Below are positions 7,715 to 48,652 of a DNA stretch of 64,000 bases, in pieces (position 1 is the stretch's first letter; the number at the start of each line of letters is the position of its first letter). The notes below the pieces were generated by a model. The model ran no database searches. It saw nothing but the letters and a program-made list of their open reading frames with translations, and had not been told where the DNA came from. The stretch is from a plasmid. The DNA lies in sequence record NZ_CP118109.1. One strand, given 5' to 3'. A program made the position numbers and the translations under genes.

Positions 7715-8530
7715 ATGAAAGGAATGCCGGTTGTTGTAAAGAAGGTCCCATATTTATATGGGCCTGAAAAAGAGAAGGTTTACTTCGCTCACCAATTGAT
7801 TCACTTAGAAGCAATGGGCAGGTCAGATTATTGGGGTGAAGAATTTATTCCTGATGGAAACTATAGCTTTAAGGTCGAGCCCGATACTTTTTATAACTTG
7901 TATAATTACACCGGTCGTCTTGATCATAAGCGGGTTCACTACTATGATAAGCGCCAGAAGCGTAGAGTCTGGCGCTCTCTTTATGACCTGCATCTACAGT
8001 TTAATCAGCATGGCCAAGTGCATGTGCTTTGCAAAACAAGTGGTGTTACTAAGCAGCAGGCTAGAAAGATAATTGTCCGTGAAGTTATTAAATTTGAGAA
8101 GACTAGCTATGTTCGCAAACATATATGGCCAAAGGTTATCCATAAGCACCGATTAACTCATATATTTAAGAATTTTGGGGATCGAGGTCATTTATGGGTC
8201 TCATCTACCTGGGGAGAACCTATTGATACCATATGTGAAAAAAGGTTCGGGCGGATTACAAAATCGCCTCTTGGCATCGGCAAATTCTATACATATAAGC
8301 CGAAGTTCAAAGTAAATTTTAGTTCTTGGATAAATTCCAGCTCAAGTGATTTGAAAGGTGAGTATCAGAACCCAGACATTTCTTATATTAATTACAGTGG
8401 AGGATCATATTCGAGATCAAGTTGTCATGACAATGATTTGCTTTTAGAAATTGAAGCCCAGCTTGATCTTAATAACTTGATGAAGAAGTACCACGATCAG
8501 CAACGATACGAATCTATATTCAACACATAA
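7715..8530 (+). CDS. hypothetical protein
   Basis: ORF track; RBS GGAGGAA. Confidence 0.5.
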   Translation: MKGMPVVVKKVPYLYGPEKEKVYFAHQLIHLEAMGRSDYWGEEFIPDGNYSFKVEPDTFYNLYNYTGRLDHKRVHYYDKRQKRRVWRSLYDLHLQFNQHGQVHVLCKTSGVTKQQARKIIVREVIKFEKTSYVRKHIWPKVIHKHRLTHIFKNFGDRGHLWVSSTWGEPIDTICEKRFGRITKSPLGIGKFYTYKPKFKVNFSSWINSSSSDLKGEYQNPDISYINYSGGSYSRSSCHDNDLLLEIEAQLDLNNLMKKYHDQQRYESIFNT

Positions 8531-8573
8531 AAATTATCTCTTTTGAAATTAATGTTTATTGGGGTGAACATTC

Positions 8574-8921
8574 ATGGAATTAATGACAGCCTATCATTAT
8601 CGAGACCCCGGTGAGTTTCAGGCTTCAATCAATTTGCAGAAGGCTAAAAATGGGGATTTCATTGGCTTCTGGACTACAGAAAAGGGGTTAGTTATTCGGC
8701 CTGCCAATATGACAGATAGTCATCTTTTAAATTGTATTCGCCTAACTGAAAGAAGAGTGCAGGATATTGATCTTCGCGAGCTTGCTTCTCAAATTATGAG
8801 TAAAAAATACAGGCGCAATAAAGCTAAAAATATAAGGATGGATGTTATTGCTGAATATCTTCGCAAATCCAAAACTTATTTATTGATGATTGAAGAAGCA
8901 AAAAACAGGGGGTTGATCTAA
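8574..8921 (+). CDS. hypothetical protein
   Basis: ORF track. Confidence 0.45.
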   Translation: MELMTAYHYRDPGEFQASINLQKAKNGDFIGFWTTEKGLVIRPANMTDSHLLNCIRLTERRVQDIDLRELASQIMSKKYRRNKAKNIRMDVIAEYLRKSKTYLLMIEEAKNRGLI

Positions 8922-9262
8922 TGCCTAAAGAACAATTTTTTAATTATAGTAGTGTACTAGAAATCGCATTATCTACTCAGTCAATTAATAGCAATAATAT
9001 CCAGTATCAAGAAGAAGAATTGAAAGTTGCAAATGTCATTTTTAATAACAACTCAGTATCTGATGAGCAGCTTGATAACATTAGCTTTGAAGGCATTAAA
9101 CGACTATTCGAAGAGATTAATTATACTGCCACCCTTGAAGATGGGGAGGAGTATACTCCCAATATGCTGAGAGACAGTATTTATCAACATGTATATATGC
9201 GCGAATTTATATTTGAGCTAAAAAAGATGCAGCGAGTTCGACAACCAGTAAAATTTTTTTAA
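8921..9262 (+). CDS. hypothetical protein
   Basis: ORF track; overlap coupling. Confidence 0.45.
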   Translation: MPKEQFFNYSSVLEIALSTQSINSNNIQYQEEELKVANVIFNNNSVSDEQLDNISFEGIKRLFEEINYTATLEDGEEYTPNMLRDSIYQHVYMREFIFELKKMQRVRQPVKFF

Positions 9263-9276
9263 TAGAGGTGTGATCC

Positions 9277-9804
9277 ATGCACGAAGTTACCCCTTTGTTC
9301 GGAGCTGAAGAACGTGATTATTGGCTTAATCAATTAGATATTCTTGCACTCTTGAAAATTCGAAGGATTAATAATTTTGAAACTTCATCGGAATTTAATA
9401 ACTTAACAACTCAGCCTGGTGATGGATTAGTTCAAACATTATTTCGCCTAACTCTTCACGATCTTATATTTCCCTACGGAGCAGTATTTGGCTATTCCGA
9501 TGATGATCATGAAGATACAATTGCGAGAATCGAGTTTTATTTTCGTGAAGATTTAACAGAAACAGAATTAAAAATACTAGCTCCCATCAAAAAGAAGTTT
9601 GAAGATATTCTTGATGATATTTCAGGTTTTGATTTTGATGCCTCGTGGGAAATCGAACAAGAAGATATATTGCATATTAAATATTATTATTTTGTTGGTG
9701 TGGGGTTGGGTGCTATAAATTTTATGAACTTACTTAAAGAAATAAAGCCATATTTAACAGAAGGAGGCAATGGAAATGTCAGTCAAGATCGAGCTTCATC
9801 CTGA
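9277..9804 (+). CDS. hypothetical acidic protein
   Basis: ORF track. Confidence 0.45.
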   Translation: MHEVTPLFGAEERDYWLNQLDILALLKIRRINNFETSSEFNNLTTQPGDGLVQTLFRLTLHDLIFPYGAVFGYSDDDHEDTIARIEFYFREDLTETELKILAPIKKKFEDILDDISGFDFDASWEIEQEDILHIKYYYFVGVGLGAINFMNLLKEIKPYLTEGGNGNVSQDRASS

Positions 9805-10447
9805 AAAGATGCCGCTTTTAATTATTGAAGATAATGGAGTTAAAACGACGAAATATGTTTATGCGGATCAAATTATTGATATGCTTCAATCATCAACAGG
9901 AGGGAAAGAATTTACATCTGATAGAGTGGTTCTTACTTCTCCTGCGCTTCCACAAAACACAGCCAAATATGCTCAATCTGAAAAAGGAACAAACTATTTA
10001 TTTATTACAGTAGAAGAAACTACCCATGATGTTAAATATCATGATTTTAGTTTCGAATCGATACCATATCCAAAAATGGTTTTTGCTTTTGCTGTTGCTG
10101 GTAAAACACTCATATCGGCATATGTTGCAGCTTATAAAGACTTAAGCCTTAGAGACACGTCTGAGCTATACCGATTCCCTTATTCTAATGTTTACGATAG
10201 TGGAAAGCTCTGCTACTGGACTAATGAGTTGGTTCATGATCTTGTGCAGTTGCAGACATTCCCTTATCAATGGCGTGAAGTGCCTAATAATGATCATATT
10301 TATTTTTCCGGAGAAACCAACAAAATTAAAGACACCTTGTATAATGTCTTTGACATGTTTAAAAACAAGCCATTTGATTACGATATCCTAACACCAATGA
10401 ATACGACATTTGGTGATTGGTCTAGATTATTTATTAATAACAACTAG
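9776..10447 (+). CDS. E2-like (UBC-fold) protein, candidate ubiquitin-like conjugating enzyme
   Basis: Motif FPYSNVYDSGKLCYW matches the E2 HPN-x(6-7)-G-x-hydrophobic-C-hydrophobic active-site pattern (His absent, as in many prokaryotic E2s); AGGAGG RBS 8 nt before ATG 9776. Confidence 0.4.
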   Translation: MSVKIELHPEKMPLLIIEDNGVKTTKYVYADQIIDMLQSSTGGKEFTSDRVVLTSPALPQNTAKYAQSEKGTNYLFITVEETTHDVKYHDFSFESIPYPKMVFAFAVAGKTLISAYVAAYKDLSLRDTSELYRFPYSNVYDSGKLCYWTNELVHDLVQLQTFPYQWREVPNNDHIYFSGETNKIKDTLYNVFDMFKNKPFDYDILTPMNTTFGDWSRLFINNN

Positions 10448-10458
10448 GAGGAATTATC

Positions 10459-10884
10459 ATGGATTTTATTCAAGAGCAAGAAAACAATGAGGAATTAGAA
10501 AAACAAAAGCAGCTCGATTATATGATGAAATCAGTGGAGCCAGAAGAACCAGAAGACGAGGCAGAAAGCAAAGACGCTAATGTTGAGTATGATCTCTTTG
10601 GTGAGCCTATTGCTGCAGCAACTCCAAAATCAAAATCTTCAAAGCCTAAAGTCAATGCTACAAAGCCATCACCGACTGATCCTGTCAAATATGATACGAA
10701 TTGGGTATGTCTCGTTTACGATAAGCGCATTCCCGTTCCAGAAGACGGATTAACATTGGAAAAAGTGCGACAGTACTTGGAAATGGAGTATCCTCAATTT
10801 TCTAAAGACCGCACTGAAATGATGATTGATAAGGAGCAGAAATATATCATTCCAAATGTAACCAAAGCACCGAAAAAGGGGTGA
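10459..10884 (+). CDS. candidate ubiquitin-like (beta-grasp) protein with acidic disordered N-terminal half, ending in Gly
   Basis: C-terminal ~60 aa has beta-alpha-beta pattern and terminates ...KAPKKG-stop; sits between E2-like and E1-like genes. Confidence 0.3.
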   Translation: MDFIQEQENNEELEKQKQLDYMMKSVEPEEPEDEAESKDANVEYDLFGEPIAAATPKSKSSKPKVNATKPSPTDPVKYDTNWVCLVYDKRIPVPEDGLTLEKVRQYLEMEYPQFSKDRTEMMIDKEQKYIIPNVTKAPKKG

Positions 10885-10891
10885 TTATATT

Positions 10892-11707
10892 ATGATCAAG
10901 GAAATCAATGTAGCTGATTCTTTATCAGGATTTTCTATTGTTCAGATTGGCGTCGGAGGTAATGGAGGATATTTAACCCAGCGTCTTTCAAAAATGCTTA
11001 AATCTTTCCTGCAGACGAATCCAGTTTTTCGCTTTACTTATACGCTTATTGATGGGGATCGATTTGAAGAGAAGAATCTCCTGCGGCAACCATGCATCGA
11101 AGAAGATATTGGTTTTGTAAAGTCTCAAGTGTTAGCTGATCGTTATGGGAATGTTTATGACTTTCCGATTCATTATAAGGATGAGTACATTGAATCTATT
11201 CAAAGTATTGAAGAAGCATTTAGCATTGGGGGTCATCGGGTAAAGATTCTTATCGGCTGTGTTGATAATCATGCAACACGCAAGATCATGCATGAATACT
11301 TTCATAGCTGCACAGGCGATATTATCTACATTGATAGTGGAATTGATCCTTACGATGAAGATGATCCAGCTTCAGGATATTCTGGACAGATTGTTTGCGG
11401 TCTTAAATTAAGCGGAAAAGTAGTGCTACAGCCGGTTGGAGATCTATATGAAGATATCTTAACAGATACGGAATCAAAGCTCCCTACAGAGTCATGCGGG
11501 GATATTGTGGCTAATCAACCGCAGCGCATGATGACAAATGAAATGGCAGCTCTCGTTATGGCTGGCTATCTAAATAACATATTAGGCTCACGCACTCTTA
11601 TCAGTCATGTAACAAATTTCAACGCAAGACTATTATCAACACGCTCTGAATATATTACTGCAGGACAATTCGCTTTAGCAGAAAATGTCCGTTTAGTTAC
11701 AGCATAA
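10892..11707 (+). CDS. E1-like adenylyltransferase (ThiF/MoeB/UBA family)
   Basis: Rossmann IGVGGNGG; LIDGDRFEEKNLLRQ (DxD...NLxRQ); CVDNHATR; candidate catalytic Cys in PTESCGD. Confidence 0.7.
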   Translation: MIKEINVADSLSGFSIVQIGVGGNGGYLTQRLSKMLKSFLQTNPVFRFTYTLIDGDRFEEKNLLRQPCIEEDIGFVKSQVLADRYGNVYDFPIHYKDEYIESIQSIEEAFSIGGHRVKILIGCVDNHATRKIMHEYFHSCTGDIIYIDSGIDPYDEDDPASGYSGQIVCGLKLSGKVVLQPVGDLYEDILTDTESKLPTESCGDIVANQPQRMMTNEMAALVMAGYLNNILGSRTLISHVTNFNARLLSTRSEYITAGQFALAENVRLVTA

Positions 11708-11716
11708 TACACAATA

Positions 11717-11758
11717 AAAGCCGGTGGCTCTCATTTTGAGGGCTGCCGGCTTTTTTAT
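11717..11758 (+). terminator. intrinsic terminator
   Basis: AAGCCGGTGGC...GCTGCCGGCTT stem followed by TTTTTTATTT. Confidence 0.7.
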
Positions 11759-11791
11759 TTCTCAATTCTTATAACAACGGAGGTTAGTTCA

Positions 11792-13009
11792 TTGAAGACT
11801 TTTTTCGAAGTGATGCAGATTGTCATTTTCCTTTGGTTAAGCTATTGGTTTGTCATTGGTCTATTCGGCTTCGGCAAAGCAAAGAAGTTAGCGAATCATG
11901 CGCCTGAAAACCGATTTTTGCTTCTAATTCCTGCGAATAACGAGGCGGCTGTCATATCTGACATCTTGGAAAATCTTAAGCAAATAGACTATCCTGATCA
12001 TCTATATGATATCTGCTTAATTGCTGACAACTGTCAAGACAACACAGCAGAGATAGGTAGATCCAAGGATGTAATGGTCCTTGAGCATTTTTATCTCCCA
12101 GGGGAGAAAAAAGGAAAGCCCTATGCTATTCGTTATGCGATTGAAACAGTCGATCTGAATCAGTATGATGCAATCTGTGTATTTGATGCAGACAATCTTG
12201 TTTCGAGAAATTATCTTGAACAAATGAACAATCACCTTTGTGCTGGAGAGAAAATCGTTCAATGCTACATAGACACGAAAAATCCTACAGACAACTTTGT
12301 AACGATCGCATTCGATACAAGCTTTCGTGTAATGAACAGATCATGGCAATTGGCCAAATCACGTCTTGGACTCAGTAACGTGATCGGCGGCACTGGATTC
12401 TGTGTAGAGATGAACGTATTTCGTGAAGTAGGCTGGACAGCTAAGAGCTTGACTGAAGACCTAGAATTTACAATGCAGGCTCTCCTTAGAGGCGTGAAAA
12501 CAACGTGGTGCCACCATGCTAAAGTATACGACGAGAAGCCTACTGGCTTTAAAGACAGCTGTATTCAGCGTCTTCGCTGGTCGAGAGGGCATTGGGATGT
12601 ATGCTTTAAATATACTGCCCCCCTGCTTAAAAGAGCATTCATAAAGGGAGACCTATCTGCATTTGACAGCGTTCTTTATCTGCTTAATCCAGGAAGAATT
12701 GCTGCCGCTTTTATCATGTCTTCATTTTTCTATATAGCTTTGGTTTTTGGCCACACTTTATACGATACGATTATTCCTATGTGGGTTTACACATTTATGC
12801 TTCTTTCTAATTTTATGTATATCCATATCTCATTAAAGGATGCAAAACATAAGGTGAATACCTTTAAGGCTTACTTCTATTTAAACCTAATTAGCCTATC
12901 TAATATTCCGCTTTATTTTTGGTCATTCTTGACTTTTTCTAAGAAAGTTTGGGTGACAACAAAACACACAAAGTCCTCAAGCCTTCAGCAAGTGGAGGAT
13001 CTTGTTTAA
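11792..13009 (+). CDS. family-2 processive beta-glycosyltransferase (cellulose/PNAG/hyaluronan-synthase-like), multi-TM
   Basis: DAD (VFDADN), Q-x-x-R-W motif (CIQRLRWSRG), N- and C-terminal TM helices. Confidence 0.7.
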   Translation: MKTFFEVMQIVIFLWLSYWFVIGLFGFGKAKKLANHAPENRFLLLIPANNEAAVISDILENLKQIDYPDHLYDICLIADNCQDNTAEIGRSKDVMVLEHFYLPGEKKGKPYAIRYAIETVDLNQYDAICVFDADNLVSRNYLEQMNNHLCAGEKIVQCYIDTKNPTDNFVTIAFDTSFRVMNRSWQLAKSRLGLSNVIGGTGFCVEMNVFREVGWTAKSLTEDLEFTMQALLRGVKTTWCHHAKVYDEKPTGFKDSCIQRLRWSRGHWDVCFKYTAPLLKRAFIKGDLSAFDSVLYLLNPGRIAAAFIMSSFFYIALVFGHTLYDTIIPMWVYTFMLLSNFMYIHISLKDAKHKVNTFKAYFYLNLISLSNIPLYFWSFLTFSKKVWVTTKHTKSSSLQQVEDLV

Positions 13010-13093
13010 ATCTGTAATATTAATTCGTATAACAGAGCATTTTTGACCTATTCTAATATCACAACCTAATATCTCCAAGATTATCGCCTATAT

Positions 13094-13107
13094 TGTAACG
13101 CATTACA
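13094..13107. promoter_or_regulatory. dyad motif TGTAACGCATTACA (copy 1a)
   Basis: 14-bp near-palindrome recurring 13x in intergenic regions. Confidence 0.6.
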
Positions 13108-13128
13108 TTATATGTAGTACTTTTATTT

Positions 13129-13142
13129 TGTAATGCATTGCA
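13129..13142. promoter_or_regulatory. dyad motif TGTAATGCATTGCA (copy 1b), followed by TATAAT at 13152
   Basis: Second copy 35 bp from 1a; -10-like GGGGTATAAT downstream. Confidence 0.55.
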
Positions 13143-13203
13143 AAACATGGGGTATAATGCTATGATATCTTACGACAACCGAACAAAGCGAGGTGGAAAC
13201 AGA

Positions 13204-13926
13204 ATGAAACATCGTAATTTTTATACGATGGGCGTCATTAATGTCCTACTTGCTGCCGCACTTGTTACTAGCGTTCAAAGAGCGGATAGTAGCTTGCAAG
13301 AAAAGAGAAACACGATACATGACTTAAACCAGACTGTAGCTAACCAGAAGCTTCTGATCGACACTCAGCAGGAGGTGCTGAACGATCAGGAAATTTTGAA
13401 AAAGCAGAACAATGAATTGGCCTATCAGCTCAATACCGTTAAGGAAAAAAGAGCAGAAGAAAATGAGCAGTTCAAGGAGCAGCTGGAAGTGCAAAATCGT
13501 TTGTTCACTCAGAAAATTGAGAAGCTTTCGAGCGAAAAAGAACAAGCAAAGCAAAGTGCTAATTCCCAGACCAGGCAACTGAATTGGGATGAAGGCACCG
13601 GTTCGTCTTACATTGCCACGTACTATGATGCAAACGAGGCATCTACAGGTAAGGGACCCGGCCATCCGGCTTATGGAGTGACATTCTCCGGTCGGAAAGT
13701 AGAGGCTGGTGTTACGATTGCAGTAGACCCGAGATTGATCCCAATTGGATCGTGGGTCGAAGTCATGTATCCAGACGGCAGAGTAGAGAAGCGGCGCGCT
13801 GACGATACTGGTGGGGCTATTAAAGGCCACAAAATTGATATCTATGTGCCCGATGCTTCTGACCGTACTAGATACGGAAAGCACGAAGTCAAGGTGAGGA
13901 TTATCTCTACACCAGAGAAATTATAA
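13204..13926 (+). CDS. 3D-domain protein (MltA/RlpA-like double-psi barrel) with signal-anchor TM and coiled coil; YabE/YocH/YuiC-like cell-wall protein
   Basis: C-terminal block GVTIAVDPRLIPIGSWVEVMYPDGRVEKRRADDTGGAIKGHKIDIYV (three conserved Asp); N-terminal TM after GAGGTGG RBS. Confidence 0.6.
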   Translation: MKHRNFYTMGVINVLLAAALVTSVQRADSSLQEKRNTIHDLNQTVANQKLLIDTQQEVLNDQEILKKQNNELAYQLNTVKEKRAEENEQFKEQLEVQNRLFTQKIEKLSSEKEQAKQSANSQTRQLNWDEGTGSSYIATYYDANEASTGKGPGHPAYGVTFSGRKVEAGVTIAVDPRLIPIGSWVEVMYPDGRVEKRRADDTGGAIKGHKIDIYVPDASDRTRYGKHEVKVRIISTPEKL

Positions 13927-14715: not shown

Positions 14716-14779
14716 GTCGCTAACGCTCCATAGGCTTTTTGAAATTATAAATTAAATTACTCTTGAGGAGGACTTTCAC

Positions 14780-15544
14780 ATGTCTAACTATCAAAATAAT
14801 GGTCAAGGTCAACAAGGAAATAACAATCAGGGGAACAGCATGCCTTCCCACGCAGAAATCGAGCTCATCGTTAATTTGGCTACTGTAAAGGATCCAAACA
14901 ATCAAAACGGCGATCGCGTACATGCTTATGCAAGAGCTGTTGGAGATTCTAAAGTTGCTAATGCAAGTGTAGCTGTTAATCACCAAGGTCAATCTGAACC
15001 GGATTATTGGAATCTTGAAGTTTGGGCGAACGGCGACCGTGACGGTAACTTTAAATTTCTGATGGAACACTGCTATAAGGGTCGCCAACTCTTCATCAAA
15101 GGTATTCCAATGCTGAAGAAAAACACAGATGGCCGTATGTTTCCGACCATCAAAGTTAGCAAAATCCAAGGTCTGGGTTCTAGCAATAACAATCAATCTG
15201 GTAATGGATCTAATCAACAACAAGGCGGCTTTGGTCAACAACAGCAACAAGGCGGAGGATTCCAGCAACAGGGTTATCAGCAACAGCCGCAACAAGGGTT
15301 TGGCCAGCAACAAGCTGGAGGCTTCCAACAGCAACAGCCTCAGCAAGGTGGGTTCCAACAGCAACCGCAACAGCCTCAACAAGGCGCTCCTGCTTGGGGT
15401 AATCAACAAGGATTTAACCAGCAACAAAATGGATTTGGTCAGCAACAACCTGCAGGATTTGGCGCCCCACAACAAGGAGGCATGCCTCAAAACCAGCCGC
15501 CACAAGGTAATTTCCAACCACCATTCGGCGCACCGCAACGCTAA
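14780..15544 (+). CDS. ssb: single-stranded DNA-binding protein with long Gly/Gln-rich linker
   Basis: OB-fold N-terminal domain; Q/G-rich tail ending ...FQPPFGAPQR (SSB C-terminal PF tip); GAGGAGG RBS. Confidence 0.75.
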   Translation: MSNYQNNGQGQQGNNNQGNSMPSHAEIELIVNLATVKDPNNQNGDRVHAYARAVGDSKVANASVAVNHQGQSEPDYWNLEVWANGDRDGNFKFLMEHCYKGRQLFIKGIPMLKKNTDGRMFPTIKVSKIQGLGSSNNNQSGNGSNQQQGGFGQQQQQGGGFQQQGYQQQPQQGFGQQQAGGFQQQQPQQGGFQQQPQQPQQGAPAWGNQQGFNQQQNGFGQQQPAGFGAPQQGGMPQNQPPQGNFQPPFGAPQR

Positions 15545-24179: not shown

Positions 24180-25829
24180 ATGTCAACTGCTATTCAACAA
24201 TCATCTGTGGATCAACTTACTGTGCTTCTCAACTCCAGGCACAGAGCTATTCTTGTTAAAACTTTTGAAGAGCAACGCTTCATAGAAAATTTGCAACATA
24301 TTGCTCAGCAAAAAGGTTATGCGAACATGTATTATTGGTCAATTACTTCTGGTCTTGTAGATGGTATTACCGGGAAACCAGCCGAGGGACCAAAGGCTGA
24401 TAATCCTATGAAGCTTTTTGATATTATTGCTGAAGCCAGGGAGCAAAACATTTATGTAATTCGTGATTTTCATGATATTTGGACCAATGCTCAAGCAAAG
24501 CGTAAATTACGGGATTATCTCGAATCGAAAACTGAATTTTATAAACCAATTATCTTAACTTCTCCCGAAGCATCTATCCCACTGGAACTTGAAAAGCTTA
24601 TAACGCTAATTAACTTTGATTTACCTGATCGGGATCGTGTTAAGTTTCTGCTGGATGGCAACATCAAGTTTTTGGAGAGCAAAGACCTTCCCACACCTAA
24701 AGGTCGAGAGTATGAAGCAATTATCCATGCCTTAGTTGGCATGACCGAGCATGAGATTTCAAATATTCTGCGCAAGACAACCTCTAAACATAAGGCGATC
24801 GTCCTTGCAGAGATTGTAGCTGAAAAAGAGCAAGTTATCAGAAAGACAGGCTTGCTCGAATACATCACGAAGCTTGGCGATATGGATAATGTAGGCGCGA
24901 TGGATCGTTTTAAAGAGTGGACGGAAGATGCCTACTACGCATTCCATCCTGATGCGCAGCAGTATAATGTTGATCCGGTACGTGGTGTAGTCCTTGCTGG
25001 CGTGCCGGGTACTGGTAAATCCTTGGCGGCTAAATCTATTGCTCATCAATGGAATCTTCCGCTGCTTAAGATGAACATGTCGGACATCATGGATTCCAAA
25101 GTTGGCCAGTCCGAGAAAAATATATCTCGTGCTCTAAAACTGTCTGAACAAGTATCGCCTTGCGTTCTCTGGATGGATGAGTTTGAGAAAGGTTTGTCGG
25201 GCATGTCGAGTTCAGACAAATCAGACTCTGGTACGCTATCCCGCGTTGTTCAAGAGATTTTGACTTGGCTCTCTGAAAAAGAGAAACCGGTATTTGTTAT
25301 TGCTACTGCGAATGATATTACAAAGCTGCCACCAGAGCTTACTCGTGCGGGTCGGTTTGACGAAATTATGTTTGTTAGTCTCCCACACACGGAAGAGCGT
25401 GCCGAGATTTTGGCTATCCATCTAAAGAAACGCGGGTATTCAATCACGAACGATGACTTTGAACATCCCAGCACACTTAATAAGCTAGATATTCTTAACC
25501 TTGCCGAGAAGATGAAAGATTTCACTGGTGCCGAGATCGAACAGGCAGTCTCTGAGGCTGGTCGCCGTGCGTACGCTGCTTTTAGAAAAGGACAACGTGA
25601 GAAGCACTACATCACTGTTCCTGATCTTGAAGAACAGGCAAACAAAATTGTTCCAATAGCGAAGCGAAATCCTCAGTTGATTAATGATCTGAGAGAATGG
25701 GCTAAACATTCAGCAGTCTGTGTGTCCAGCACCGAACATGATTTTCTTCATAGCGGTGGAAAAACAGAAGAAAACAAATCTGGTTCAACATTCCGCGTCT
25801 TTGGAACAGATCTTGAATTTTCTCAATAA
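24180..25829 (+). CDS. AAA+ ATPase (classical clade, Cdc48/FtsH/Vps4-like AAA domain) with ~240-aa N-terminal domain
   Basis: Walker A GVPGTGKS, Walker B VLWMDEFE, second region of homology TANDITKLPPELTRAGRFD. Confidence 0.7.
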   Translation: MSTAIQQSSVDQLTVLLNSRHRAILVKTFEEQRFIENLQHIAQQKGYANMYYWSITSGLVDGITGKPAEGPKADNPMKLFDIIAEAREQNIYVIRDFHDIWTNAQAKRKLRDYLESKTEFYKPIILTSPEASIPLELEKLITLINFDLPDRDRVKFLLDGNIKFLESKDLPTPKGREYEAIIHALVGMTEHEISNILRKTTSKHKAIVLAEIVAEKEQVIRKTGLLEYITKLGDMDNVGAMDRFKEWTEDAYYAFHPDAQQYNVDPVRGVVLAGVPGTGKSLAAKSIAHQWNLPLLKMNMSDIMDSKVGQSEKNISRALKLSEQVSPCVLWMDEFEKGLSGMSSSDKSDSGTLSRVVQEILTWLSEKEKPVFVIATANDITKLPPELTRAGRFDEIMFVSLPHTEERAEILAIHLKKRGYSITNDDFEHPSTLNKLDILNLAEKMKDFTGAEIEQAVSEAGRRAYAAFRKGQREKHYITVPDLEEQANKIVPIAKRNPQLINDLREWAKHSAVCVSSTEHDFLHSGGKTEENKSGSTFRVFGTDLEFSQ

Positions 25830-47311: not shown

Positions 47312-48652
47312 ATGACTATGACACTTGAACATGATATTGATTTAGATAAGAAGGTTGACCTGCAGCTGGCTGATGATGCGAATAAGGTAAGAAAGATAAC
47401 AATTAAGACTGCTGAGCTATTAAAAGCAGTGAGACGAGCTGTATCCATTGTTAACCATAATCATTCAACTCTTGTATTGCAAAATATATTCTTTGCTACT
47501 ACAGATAACGGAATTATTTTACGAGCTGTAAACGACAGCTTTTCTGTAGAAACAACAATCGATCCGGCACATTGCGTGATTGAAGATGATCCGAGATCTG
47601 TTTTGTTTCCAGCTAAGCGTCTTTTAGATATTGTCAGTAAAATGAGCGGAAAGAATACGACGATCTTTATTCGGGATAATTTCATTCGAATCAAGTCAGG
47701 TCGAGCTAATATGGATATTGGAGTCCAGGATGCAGACGAGTTCCCAAAACTGCCTCAGATCAAGAAAGGAAACACTTTCGAAATCGCTGCTGATGCATTG
47801 CTTGATATGTACACTCGTACAGTATTTGCAACCTCTAAGCTTGAAAGCATGCCTGTTTTGCAGGGCGTACTACATGACATTGAAGATCAAAGATTCCGCT
47901 GTATTGCAACGGATCGTCATCGTTTTGCGCAGGTCTATCATCCGACAACTATTGAGTGTGAGCCAATGCGTGTCAGCGTTCCTGCAATAACAATCAATGA
48001 AGTTATGAAGCATCTGAAAGAAAAGAAGGCTGATACGATCAAGGTTACAGTCAAAGACACTCGTGTAGTATACGATATGAACGATACTGTCCTTTACTCC
48101 CAGGTATTAGAAGGCACATATCCGGATACAAATCGAATCATCCCTACTGGAGCTAAGGCTACTGTGACAGTTCCTAATTCAGAGTTCCTAGGCGCAGTGA
48201 AGCGGGCAGCTATCTTTTTGGATGATTCTAATTCTTCTAAAATAACAATCATGATTGATGGCGAAAAGAACCAGATGCGCATTCAATCACTGGATAGTGA
48301 TGAAGGCACAATGTTAGAAGATATGGTAACACTAAAAGGAGAGGGCGGGTTTGCTTCATCCACGATGAATGGTCGTTATCTGCTTGAGTCCCTAAGCAGG
48401 ATTGGTGGCACTGCTCATGTTGAGATTAAGATGACATCAACAATGCCTTTTCTCTTAAGAGAAGCTAATGCTCTTGAAGGTAATGTAAATGTCGTTGTGC
48501 CTGTTAAGCATAGACTTGATAGCTCGAAATCTATCGAAAACTTTACGTCAAATTATAACGAAGAAGAAGCTGATCCTTTTGCTGGTCGTGCAGAGGAATA
48601 CGCTGAGCAGCAAGCTTCTGAGGCTACTGAAAGCCAAGAAGGAGCAGCTTAA
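47312..48652 (+). CDS. dnaN: DNA polymerase III beta sliding clamp (DnaN-like) with acidic C-terminal extension
   Basis: Three-domain length; ATDRHRFA (DnaN ATDGHRLA), domain-I N-terminal pattern. Confidence 0.75.
   Translation: MTMTLEHDIDLDKKVDLQLADDANKVRKITIKTAELLKAVRRAVSIVNHNHSTLVLQNIFFATTDNGIILRAVNDSFSVETTIDPAHCVIEDDPRSVLFPAKRLLDIVSKMSGKNTTIFIRDNFIRIKSGRANMDIGVQDADEFPKLPQIKKGNTFEIAADALLDMYTRTVFATSKLESMPVLQGVLHDIEDQRFRCIATDRHRFAQVYHPTTIECEPMRVSVPAITINEVMKHLKEKKADTIKVTVKDTRVVYDMNDTVLYSQVLEGTYPDTNRIIPTGAKATVTVPNSEFLGAVKRAAIFLDDSNSSKITIMIDGEKNQMRIQSLDSDEGTMLEDMVTLKGEGGFASSTMNGRYLLESLSRIGGTAHVEIKMTSTMPFLLREANALEGNVNVVVPVKHRLDSSKSIENFTSNYNEEEADPFAGRAEEYAEQQASEATESQEGAA

Follow-up and report, generated by a model that had tools for sequence, protein, structure and literature searches.

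The stretch of DNA analysed here (the window) comprises 64,000 nucleotides (nt) of the plasmid record NZ_CP118109.1 and belongs to a Paenibacillus element of about 215 kb; it is matched by a 214,846-bp Paenibacillus sp. TCA20 contig. Between positions 9277 and 13009 it carries five consecutive genes, all on the plus strand (Table 1). The second, third and fourth encode an E2-like protein, a ubiquitin-like protein (Ubl) and an E1-like adenylating enzyme, which together we call the cassette. They are preceded by a gene for an acidic protein of 175 amino acids (aa) and followed by an intrinsic terminator, past which lies a glycosyltransferase gene. Four of these open reading frames had been described in a reading of the sequence alone, which took three of them for a tightly spaced E2/Ubl/E1 set ending at a terminator; the coordinates, the spacing, the motifs and the terminator were all confirmed.

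The genes are laid out as an operon: they are closely spaced, the E2 start overlaps the gene before it, ribosome-binding sites are present and a terminator closes the set. The E2 reading frame has two possible starts, at 9770 and 9776. The sequence GGAGG (9763-9767) lies 8 nt before the ATG at 9776 and only 2 nt before that at 9770, and the NCBI product of the gene (223 aa) starts at 9776, which is therefore the better start. This start overlaps the upstream gene by 29 nt. A consensus ribosome-binding site, AGGAGG, is found 7 nt before the ATG of the Ubl gene, the ATG of the E1 gene is 7 nt past the Ubl stop codon, and the terminator begins 9 nt past the stop codon of E1.

Table 1. Coordinates of the cassette, of other features of the window, and of the E2-JAB-E1 sets in fetched phage loci (the latter numbered within each locus)
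Feature	Position	Strand	Description
Upstream protein	9277-9804	+	175 aa, acidic, fast-evolving; directly upstream of the E2 gene and overlapping its start
E2-like protein	9776-10447	+	223 aa, UBC fold, family Prok-E2_D; candidate catalytic Cys146 at nt 10211-10213
Ubl	10459-10884	+	141 aa; acidic N-terminal helix, short linear motif, Lys/Pro-rich linker, C-terminal beta-grasp domain
Linear motif of Ubl	10585-10611	+	E43-Y-D-L-F-G-E-P-I51, in the disordered N-terminal extension; candidate clamp-binding or other docking site
Beta-grasp domain of Ubl	10687-10881	+	residues 77-141, ending …KAPKKG
E1-like adenylating enzyme	10892-11707	+	271 aa, ThiF family, PRTRC-type; candidate Cys202 at nt 11495-11497
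Intrinsic terminator	11716-11754	+	closes the operon; 18-bp stem with 9 GC pairs, 3-nt loop, then TTATTT
GT2 glycosyltransferase	11792-13009	+	membrane protein; QRLRW at residue 259, DAD at residue 132
Clamp-loader-like ATPase	24180-25829		
DnaN-like sliding clamp	47312-48652		the element's own; phrog_947 at 1e-58; acidic C-terminal tail
E2-JAB-E1 set, locus L001	1692-4801		Prok-E2_D, then JAB (PRTRC_A) protein of 356-460 aa (range for the three loci), then ThiF
E2-JAB-E1 set, locus L002	1633-4732		as L001
E2-JAB-E1 set, locus L003	2098-4939		as L001

The three cassette proteins

The E2-like protein contains the motif PYSNVYDSGKLCY, which includes Cys146, in the arrangement P135-Y-S137-N138…C146, with N172 and H174 downstream. 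It matches Pfam Prok-E2_D (PF14460) at 28.0 bits against a gathering cut-off of 25 (E 2.2e-6), a partial match that covers residues 96-162 of the 225-aa reading frame, and the majority of its homologues are already annotated as PF14460. With the NCBIfam model PRTRC_B it scores 21 bits against a cut-off of 131.45. In an alignment of 49 homologues, P135, N138 and C146 are invariant; within the Bacillales clade S137, N172 and H174 are invariant as well. The AlphaFold model (pLDDT 91) has a UBC fold, and places Cys146 in the loop that joins the beta-meander to the next helix, as in UBC enzymes. The protein thus shows the features of the UBC/E2 superfamily, namely the fold, a Cys in the post-meander loop and an Asn about eight residues upstream of it. 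Its Y-S-N-V-x3-G-x-L-C stretch parallels H-P-N-I-x3-G-x-I-C in classical E2s, in line with the earlier description of the motif as HPN-like and followed by a Cys.

The Ubl ends in …TKAPKKG, directly followed by the stop codon, so that Gly141 is its last residue. In the homologues an acidic, variable N-terminus is followed by a conserved short motif, a linker rich in Lys and Pro, and a highly conserved C-terminal part, some 65 aa long, whose last residue is always a Gly directly before the stop codon: …(A/S)(P/K)KKG in nearly all of them and …AKNG in the group of pBtic235, a Bacillus thuringiensis element described below. G141 is invariant, and the C-terminus is the most conserved part of the protein. 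The best structural matches are ubiquitin, ISG15 and SUMO, not ThiS, and both the fold and the exposed, conserved C-terminal Gly are those of a beta-grasp modifier. A profile of the C-terminal domain recovered 74 clusters from 1.84 billion representatives, and in these the domain is mostly at the extreme C-terminus. Some relatives carry two to four residues past the Gly (GR, GCR, ARPR). In at least 12 members recovered by the profile the Ubl is fused to JAB, with …KG directly before a JAB domain that has the metalloprotease motif HSHx7Sx2D, and one relative has two tandem Ubl repeats before JAB. When 56 relatives were scanned singly, 12 matched Pfam Prok_Ub (PF14454; best 1.1e-4), 5 matched NCBIfam PRTRC_C (TIGR03738) and 9 matched Prok-JAB/PRTRC_A. 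Because of this layout, the Gly-stop, the tails past the Gly, the JAB fusions and the matches of relatives to Prok_Ub and PRTRC_C, the only reasonable reading of the small protein is that of a ubiquitin-like modifier with an exposed C-terminal Gly.

Three of the Ubl-JAB fusions (P0037, P0038 and P0068) have a PF02817 'E3_binding' domain in the N-terminal extension that precedes the Ubl domain. PF02817 is the peripheral-subunit-binding domain of 2-oxoacid dehydrogenases.

The E1-like enzyme contains the motifs GVGGNGG, DGDRFEEKNLLRQ, CVDN and LPTESCGD, the last of which holds Cys202. It matches Pfam ThiF (PF00899) at 1.3e-7 (31.5 bits against a cut-off of 28.1), and its best NCBIfam match is PRTRC_ThiF (TIGR03736; 5.4e-18, 65.2 bits against a cut-off of 144.75). 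Across 10 homologues, including those of lytic jumbo phages, the invariant residues are G20xGGNGG26, D56, N62, R65, Q66, K77, D125 and C202, the last in the context LPTxxC(G/A). The score, the Gly-rich loop and the four adenylation residues (Asp, Arg, Lys and Asp) are as expected for the ThiF/E1 superfamily, and Cys202 is the candidate catalytic Cys. The protein has no rhodanese domain. A PDB search with the single sequence returned nothing, and a profile search returned ThiF, TcdA and MccB, along with 9egc, a ThiF-fold entry that is unpublished. Among solved structures the profile best matches PDB 9egb/9egc/9egd, deposited as 'THIF-type NAD/FAD binding fold domain-containing protein' in 7- and 14-chain assemblies, for which we found no paper. 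In a locus of Paenibacillus lautus pAZOPL1 (L028, 5995-8846) the cassette ThiF is annotated as a 135-aa fragment followed by a reverse-transcriptase gene, and the middle gene encodes 477 aa; a group II intron may have been inserted into the E1 gene of this plasmid.

Taken together, these results make it very likely (a probability above 0.9 in our estimate) that the three proteins are homologues of E1, E2 and Ubl. Each of the identities proposed from the sequence alone is borne out: the E2-like protein by the above-threshold Prok-E2_D match, the modelled fold and its invariant residues, the Ubl by its structural matches and the invariant G141-stop, and the E1 by the Pfam match and the invariance of the adenylation residues and Cys202. 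The outcome that would have told against them, a first protein without a UBC fold or a second without a beta-grasp, did not materialize; both folds are supported.

Class, relatives and carrier

The cassette is a diverged, JAB-less member of the type-6d/PRTRC class, which had already been predicted computationally. Type 6d combines a Ubl that has a C-terminal Gly with an alpha-helical protein, an E2-like protein, a JAB protein with JAB-N and an E1-like protein, and was predicted to be a conjugation system; the table of this type already lists 'Bcer' and 'Bthu' (Iyer, Burroughs & Aravind 2006, PMC1779556). The E2-like proteins of the class lack the classical His and have a conserved His downstream (PMC1779556), and the same is seen in the window. 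The core of type 6d is present in one operon, with a Gly-ending Ubl, an E2-like protein that has the Cys and the downstream His, and a stand-alone E1 without rhodanese; carriage by a mobile element is a further point of likeness, and a fast-diverging extra protein may be another. A JAB protein with JAB-N beside or fused to E1 was found neither in the window nor in the approximately 20 fetched Bacillales relatives that have the window's layout; remote relatives have it as a Ubl-JAB fusion. PRTRC is the TIGRFAM name for 6d, and the family matches are to Prok-E2_D, PRTRC_B and PRTRC_ThiF, with Prok_Ub and PRTRC_C matched by relatives of the Ubl.

The cassette differs from 6d/PRTRC in lacking JAB/PRTRC_A, ParB and PRTRC D, E and F. 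When the PRTRC models (TIGR03734-03742) were run on the 9 open reading frames of 7715-13926, the ParB homologue, PRTRC_A, D, E and F gave no match. The order of genes is also different (protein of no known family, E2, Ubl, E1), the replicon is a jumbo temperate phage-plasmid of Bacillales, and the Ubl is extended at its N-terminus by about 75 aa that include a [DS]LF(G) motif, an extension not present in the PRTRC_C proteins, which are about 70 aa long. A bona fide PRTRC system was ruled out by the NCBIfam cut-offs and the list of components. What is new in the cassette is therefore not its kind: it is that it is JAB-less, ParB-less and borne by a phage-plasmid, and that its Ubl is extended by a candidate docking motif.

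The sequence-only reading had instead placed the three genes beside Bil and related systems. The type-6d/PRTRC assignment displaces this: in PADLOC, of which v2.0 (2023) may lack Bil/Bub models, the proteins have no sequence-level match to Bil or Bub, and the E2 is of a different family (Prok-E2_D). Bil (BilABCD) and Bub serve host defence from the chromosome and have their own deubiquitinase or peptidase, whereas the window cassette is carried by a phage-like element. PADLOC gave no match for E2 and for the Ubl only a weak one to the unrelated PDC-M09B (E 0.016). Its matches for E1 were weak (E>=2.7e-4) and to CBASS 'E1-E2' models, and the NCBIfam match to cap2_3 was weak as well. Type II CBASS Cap2/Cap3 resembles the cassette in having E1 and E2 domains of the same superfamilies. 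CBASS, however, has E1 fused to E2, uses the C-terminus of the CD-NTase as its 'Ubl' and has a JAB in Cap3; the window proteins are not fused, and Pfam and NCBIfam scans detected no CD-NTase, effector or deubiquitinase near the cassette. The PHROGs collection has no family for E2, Ubl, E1 or the upstream protein, and a review of jumbo phages (PMC7824862) does not mention the cassette.

The absence of a JAB deubiquitinase, remarked on from the sequence alone, extends to the whole window: a six-frame search with hidden Markov models found no JAB of the PRTRC_A type (best E-value 0.85). The fetched Bacillales relatives that share the layout have none either, as far as 6 kb to each side of their cassettes. 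Lytic jumbo phages provide the comparison. Bacillus phages vB_BceM_WH1 and vB_BauM_KLEB27-3, Vibrio phage D69 and Acinetobacter phage ME3 have homologous E2 and E1 proteins (E1 identity about 28-30%), in the same order of E2, middle gene and E1 and likewise on a jumbo phage. The middle gene encodes a JAB in the lytic phages (WH1, KLEB27-3 and D69 carry E2-JAB-E1; loci L001 to L003 in Table 1), whereas in the window it encodes the Ubl and a JAB is absent. The pattern is a mirror image, for in the fetched E2-JAB-E1 loci of lytic jumbo phages no Ubl of the window family is detectable.

Ubl-JAB fusions were located in an Alicyclobacillus plasmid and in a metagenome-assembled genome of Clostridia. 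In the former (Alicyclobacillus sp. TC plasmid p1, 124 kb; locus L027, 711-6631) the fusion, annotated 'Mov34/MPN/PAD-1', lies between the E2 and ThiF genes, and the dnaN gene of the plasmid is 3 kb upstream of it. The simplest history would be one in which a Ubl-JAB gene lost its JAB part and came to have a stop codon at the cleavage site. Since the stop codon directly follows the Gly, no maturation protease is required; since there is no cognate JAB, a modification would probably not be reversed by the element itself.

The nearest cassette proteins are encoded on replicons or contigs of about 93-256 kb in Bacillus, Paenibacillus, Cytobacillus, Alicyclobacillus and Oceanobacillus, which databases file as non-mobilizable plasmids or as IMG/VR viral contigs. 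Every fetched Bacillales locus that is long enough to show it has the E2-Ubl-E1 set, with protein identities of 39-66% (about 20 loci, several of which are duplicate copies of one contig), and this recurrence argues that the arrangement is not due to chance. In the element, as in all of these relatives, the cassette lies in a block of replication and recombination genes, among those for an SNF2 helicase, SSB, RecA and UDG. One relative, pBtic235 (= pBTHD789-2) of B. thuringiensis, has been proven by experiment to be an inducible, plaque-forming, circular jumbo prophage (PMC9700832); its cassette is homologous to that of the window, with an E1 identity of 49%. Large genes of the window match phage families, including helicases, a primase, the clamp-loader-like ATPase, the DnaN-like processivity factor and an integrase. 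Homology thus gives good support to the view that the carrier is a temperate jumbo phage-plasmid of Paenibacillus and that the cassette is phage-borne. The earlier placement of the genes on the phage side holds in this indirect way, through the IMG/VR relatives and pBtic235, and not directly, as the 64-kb window has no virion genes. A megablast of positions 9000-13500 against a phage collection found no match, from which we conclude that no deposited phage is a close relative of the element.

Predicted chemistry, targets and alternatives

From what is known of the families, a pathway can be proposed. The ThiF-type E1 would bind ATP and adenylate the free C-terminal Gly141 of the Ubl, which would pass, possibly via Cys202 of E1, to a thioester on Cys146 of E2; E2 would then move the Ubl onto lysines of one or more targets. 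The likeliest determinants of targeting would be the [DS]LF(G) docking motif and the acidic protein that is translationally coupled to E2. We estimate the probability that the cassette carries out adenylation, thioester transfer and lysine conjugation at roughly 60%, on the grounds of the chemistry of these families, the invariance of the residues and the relatives in which the Ubl is fused to JAB. A complete conjugation pathway had been suggested from the sequence alone; of this, the E1, E2 and Ubl identities stand, whereas conjugation itself and its targets are what we infer from them.

Several observations weigh against the proposed chemistry. The window Ubl has no match in Pfam or NCBIfam even at E<=1, and its link to Prok_Ub is transitive, through relatives. 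The E2 has a Ser in place of the classical Pro of HPN and is without the His. NCBIfam scores of the window proteins are far below the PRTRC cut-offs. No E3 and no target was identified. Less clear in its bearing is RNA-seq of pBtic235, which does not place E2, Ubl and E1 among the genes significantly induced by mitomycin C; the flanking genes are induced, with a log2 fold change of 3.1 for the gene upstream of E2 (PMC9700832, Supp. Data 1). We found no experimental work on 6d/PRTRC in the literature, and a Burkholderia prophage paper of 2026, which reports full PRTRC cassettes in a few temperate phages, states that their function had gone unstudied (PMC13366799).

True protein conjugation by bacterial E1/E2/Ubl systems (CBASS Cap2, Bil, Bub) has recently been shown in anti-phage defence. 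The 6d/PRTRC class is the oldest predicted class of such systems. The cassette is a minimal, self-contained, virus-side version of it, with four small genes and an already mature Ubl that needs no protease, which makes it attractive for reconstitution. In pBtic235 it has a genetically tractable, plaque-forming relative, so that its function is directly testable.

The conserved position of the cassette among replication and recombination genes, together with a motif that resembles a clamp-binding one, suggests that the targets may be replication or repair (replisome) proteins. The motif has the family consensus Q-L-[DS]-L-F-G. Among 66 family representatives with an N-terminal extension, and with expectations taken from shuffled sequences, [DS]LF occurs in 40 (1.2 expected) and [DS]LFG in 23 (0.03 expected); the canonical Q-phi-x-[LM]-[FL] is present in 14 (0.3 expected) and the exact QL[SD]LF in 6 (0 expected). 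Judged by these counts, the [DS]LF(G) motif is clearly under selection. QL[S/D]LF is the consensus for binding to the bacterial beta sliding clamp, and in clamp peptides positions 1, 4 and 5 weigh most and acidic flanks are favourable (PMC11139829; bioRxiv 10.64898/2026.05.27.728225, the latter on B. subtilis).

Binding of the motif to a clamp is an attractive hypothesis, unproven as it is, and docking to E1, E2 or the 175-aa protein is equally possible. The window Ubl reads EYDLFGEPI and its nearest relatives ELDLFG, with Glu in place of Gln1, a change reported to strongly lower the affinity of peptides. The dnaN gene is near the cassette in only one relative, the Alicyclobacillus plasmid, so that genomic linkage gives the clamp idea no support, and no other protein of the window has a convincing clamp-binding motif. 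In its strong form the idea is that the Ubl is a clamp-directed tag: the motif would dock on the host DnaN or the element's DnaN-like protein, and the Gly would be coupled to the clamp or to clamp-bound replication or repair proteins. We regard this as unlikely. If this were true, the phage would encode a bacterial equivalent of PCNA ubiquitination or SUMOylation, with which it takes over or re-programmes the replisome; a functional motif of this kind would be the first link of Ubl tagging to the bacterial replisome.

Position within a replication block is also what would be expected if the cassette, in keeping with the name PRTRC, helped the extrachromosomal prophage to be stably inherited or to control its copy number, for instance through the tagging of a protein for partition or for the initiation of replication, and did not act on virion proteins or on the defence proteins of the host. 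This proposal differs on role and not on chemistry. On plasmids, canonical PRTRC cassettes occur together with ParB, and they have been called partition cassettes (PMC13366799); all close relatives are low-mobility replicons of 190-256 kb kept as plasmids. However, no homologue of ParB or of PRTRC D, E or F lies beside the window cassette, strictly lytic jumbo phages carry related E2-JAB-E1 sets, and PRTRC has been tied to partition by no experiment (PMC13366799). We consider a role in maintenance about as doubtful as the clamp-directed tag.

A role in counter-defence has a smaller chance of being correct. Here the Ubl system would interfere with the immunity of the host, modifying or jamming it, for instance through the tagging of defence proteins or through competition with the host's own Bil, Bub or CBASS machinery. 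The proposal draws on the participation of bacterial E1/E2/Ubl systems in phage defence, and on the fast evolution of the companion protein (11-41% identity) and a patchy distribution over lineages, both typical of arms-race genes. Yet the likeness to Bil and Bub components is limited to fold, the PADLOC matches of E1 to CBASS are weak, the conserved position is among replication genes and not in an anti-defence island, and direct evidence is absent.

Less probable again is a sulfur carrier, i.e. that the Ubl receives a C-terminal thiocarboxylate, as in ThiS, MoaD and Urm1, for a phage-specific thiolation (e.g. of tRNA, DNA or a cofactor) and tags no protein. Adenylation of a terminal Gly by a ThiF-type enzyme would fit either fate. 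A ThiS/MoaD context for E1 had been named at the outset as the finding that would overturn the conjugation proposal, and no such context exists: genes for ThiG, ThiH, MoaE, a cysteine desulfurase or a sulfurtransferase are absent from the neighbourhood in the window and in the relatives, and E1 has no rhodanese. Moreover, an E2 that has the UBC fold and an invariant Cys is never missing, the JAB fusions and the tandem-Ubl relative are typical of conjugation systems, and the top structural matches of the Ubl do not include ThiS. Least probable is a decaying remnant, whose genes ceased to work together after the loss of JAB: the ancestral JAB component is indeed missing and the proteins score well below the PRTRC cut-offs, but all residues of catalytic type are invariant across relatives at 39-66% identity, the Ubl is best conserved at its C-terminus, and the genes, intact and tightly coupled, keep their synteny across many genera.

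Neighbouring genes

The upstream 175-aa protein has a syntenic counterpart in 7 of the 7 relatives examined, at the low identities given above, and across the 8 sequences not one residue is invariant. It has no match in Pfam, NCBIfam, PHROGs, PADLOC or PDB; nothing informative came from Pfam searches with the 8 homologues or from a profile search of PDB. Type 6d includes an alpha-helical protein that diverges fast but keeps certain charged residues; 9277-9804 shows the rapid divergence and the synteny, but no invariant residues.

The glycosyltransferase past the terminator is a genuine GT2 enzyme with the QRLRW motif, as had been read from the sequence; its best matches are EpsU-like (2e-43) and PgaC/IcaA-like (2e-16). 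It is not part of the system beside which it was noted. The gene is absent from the closest relative, of 213 kb, in which E1 is directly followed by the 3D-domain gene described next, and from other relatives. Its position past the terminator and this absence indicate an independent, lineage-specific insertion (moron), and they rule out a functional link with the cassette. Among phages, its closest homologues belong to large Staphylococcus phages (32-37% identity).

Further 3' of the cassette, positions 13138-13926 encode a cell-wall protein with a 3D domain (SpsC/Ent-like), an N-terminal membrane anchor and a coiled coil, which is possibly a phage lytic transglycosylase. A 3D-domain gene also follows the cassette in three fetched relatives (L004, L006 and L007). 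In pBtic235 (NZ_CP051859.1, 819-2364) and in locus L029 a second ThiF-family gene adjoins a reverse-transcriptase-like gene; that of pBtic235 responds to mitomycin C with an induction of about 16-fold (PMC9700832, Supp. Data 1). The SSB-like protein encoded at 14780-15544 in the window has an unusually long, repetitive Gln/Gly-rich tail (GGFQQQ…), and a long antisense open reading frame at 14720-15538 is probably an artefact of this repeat.

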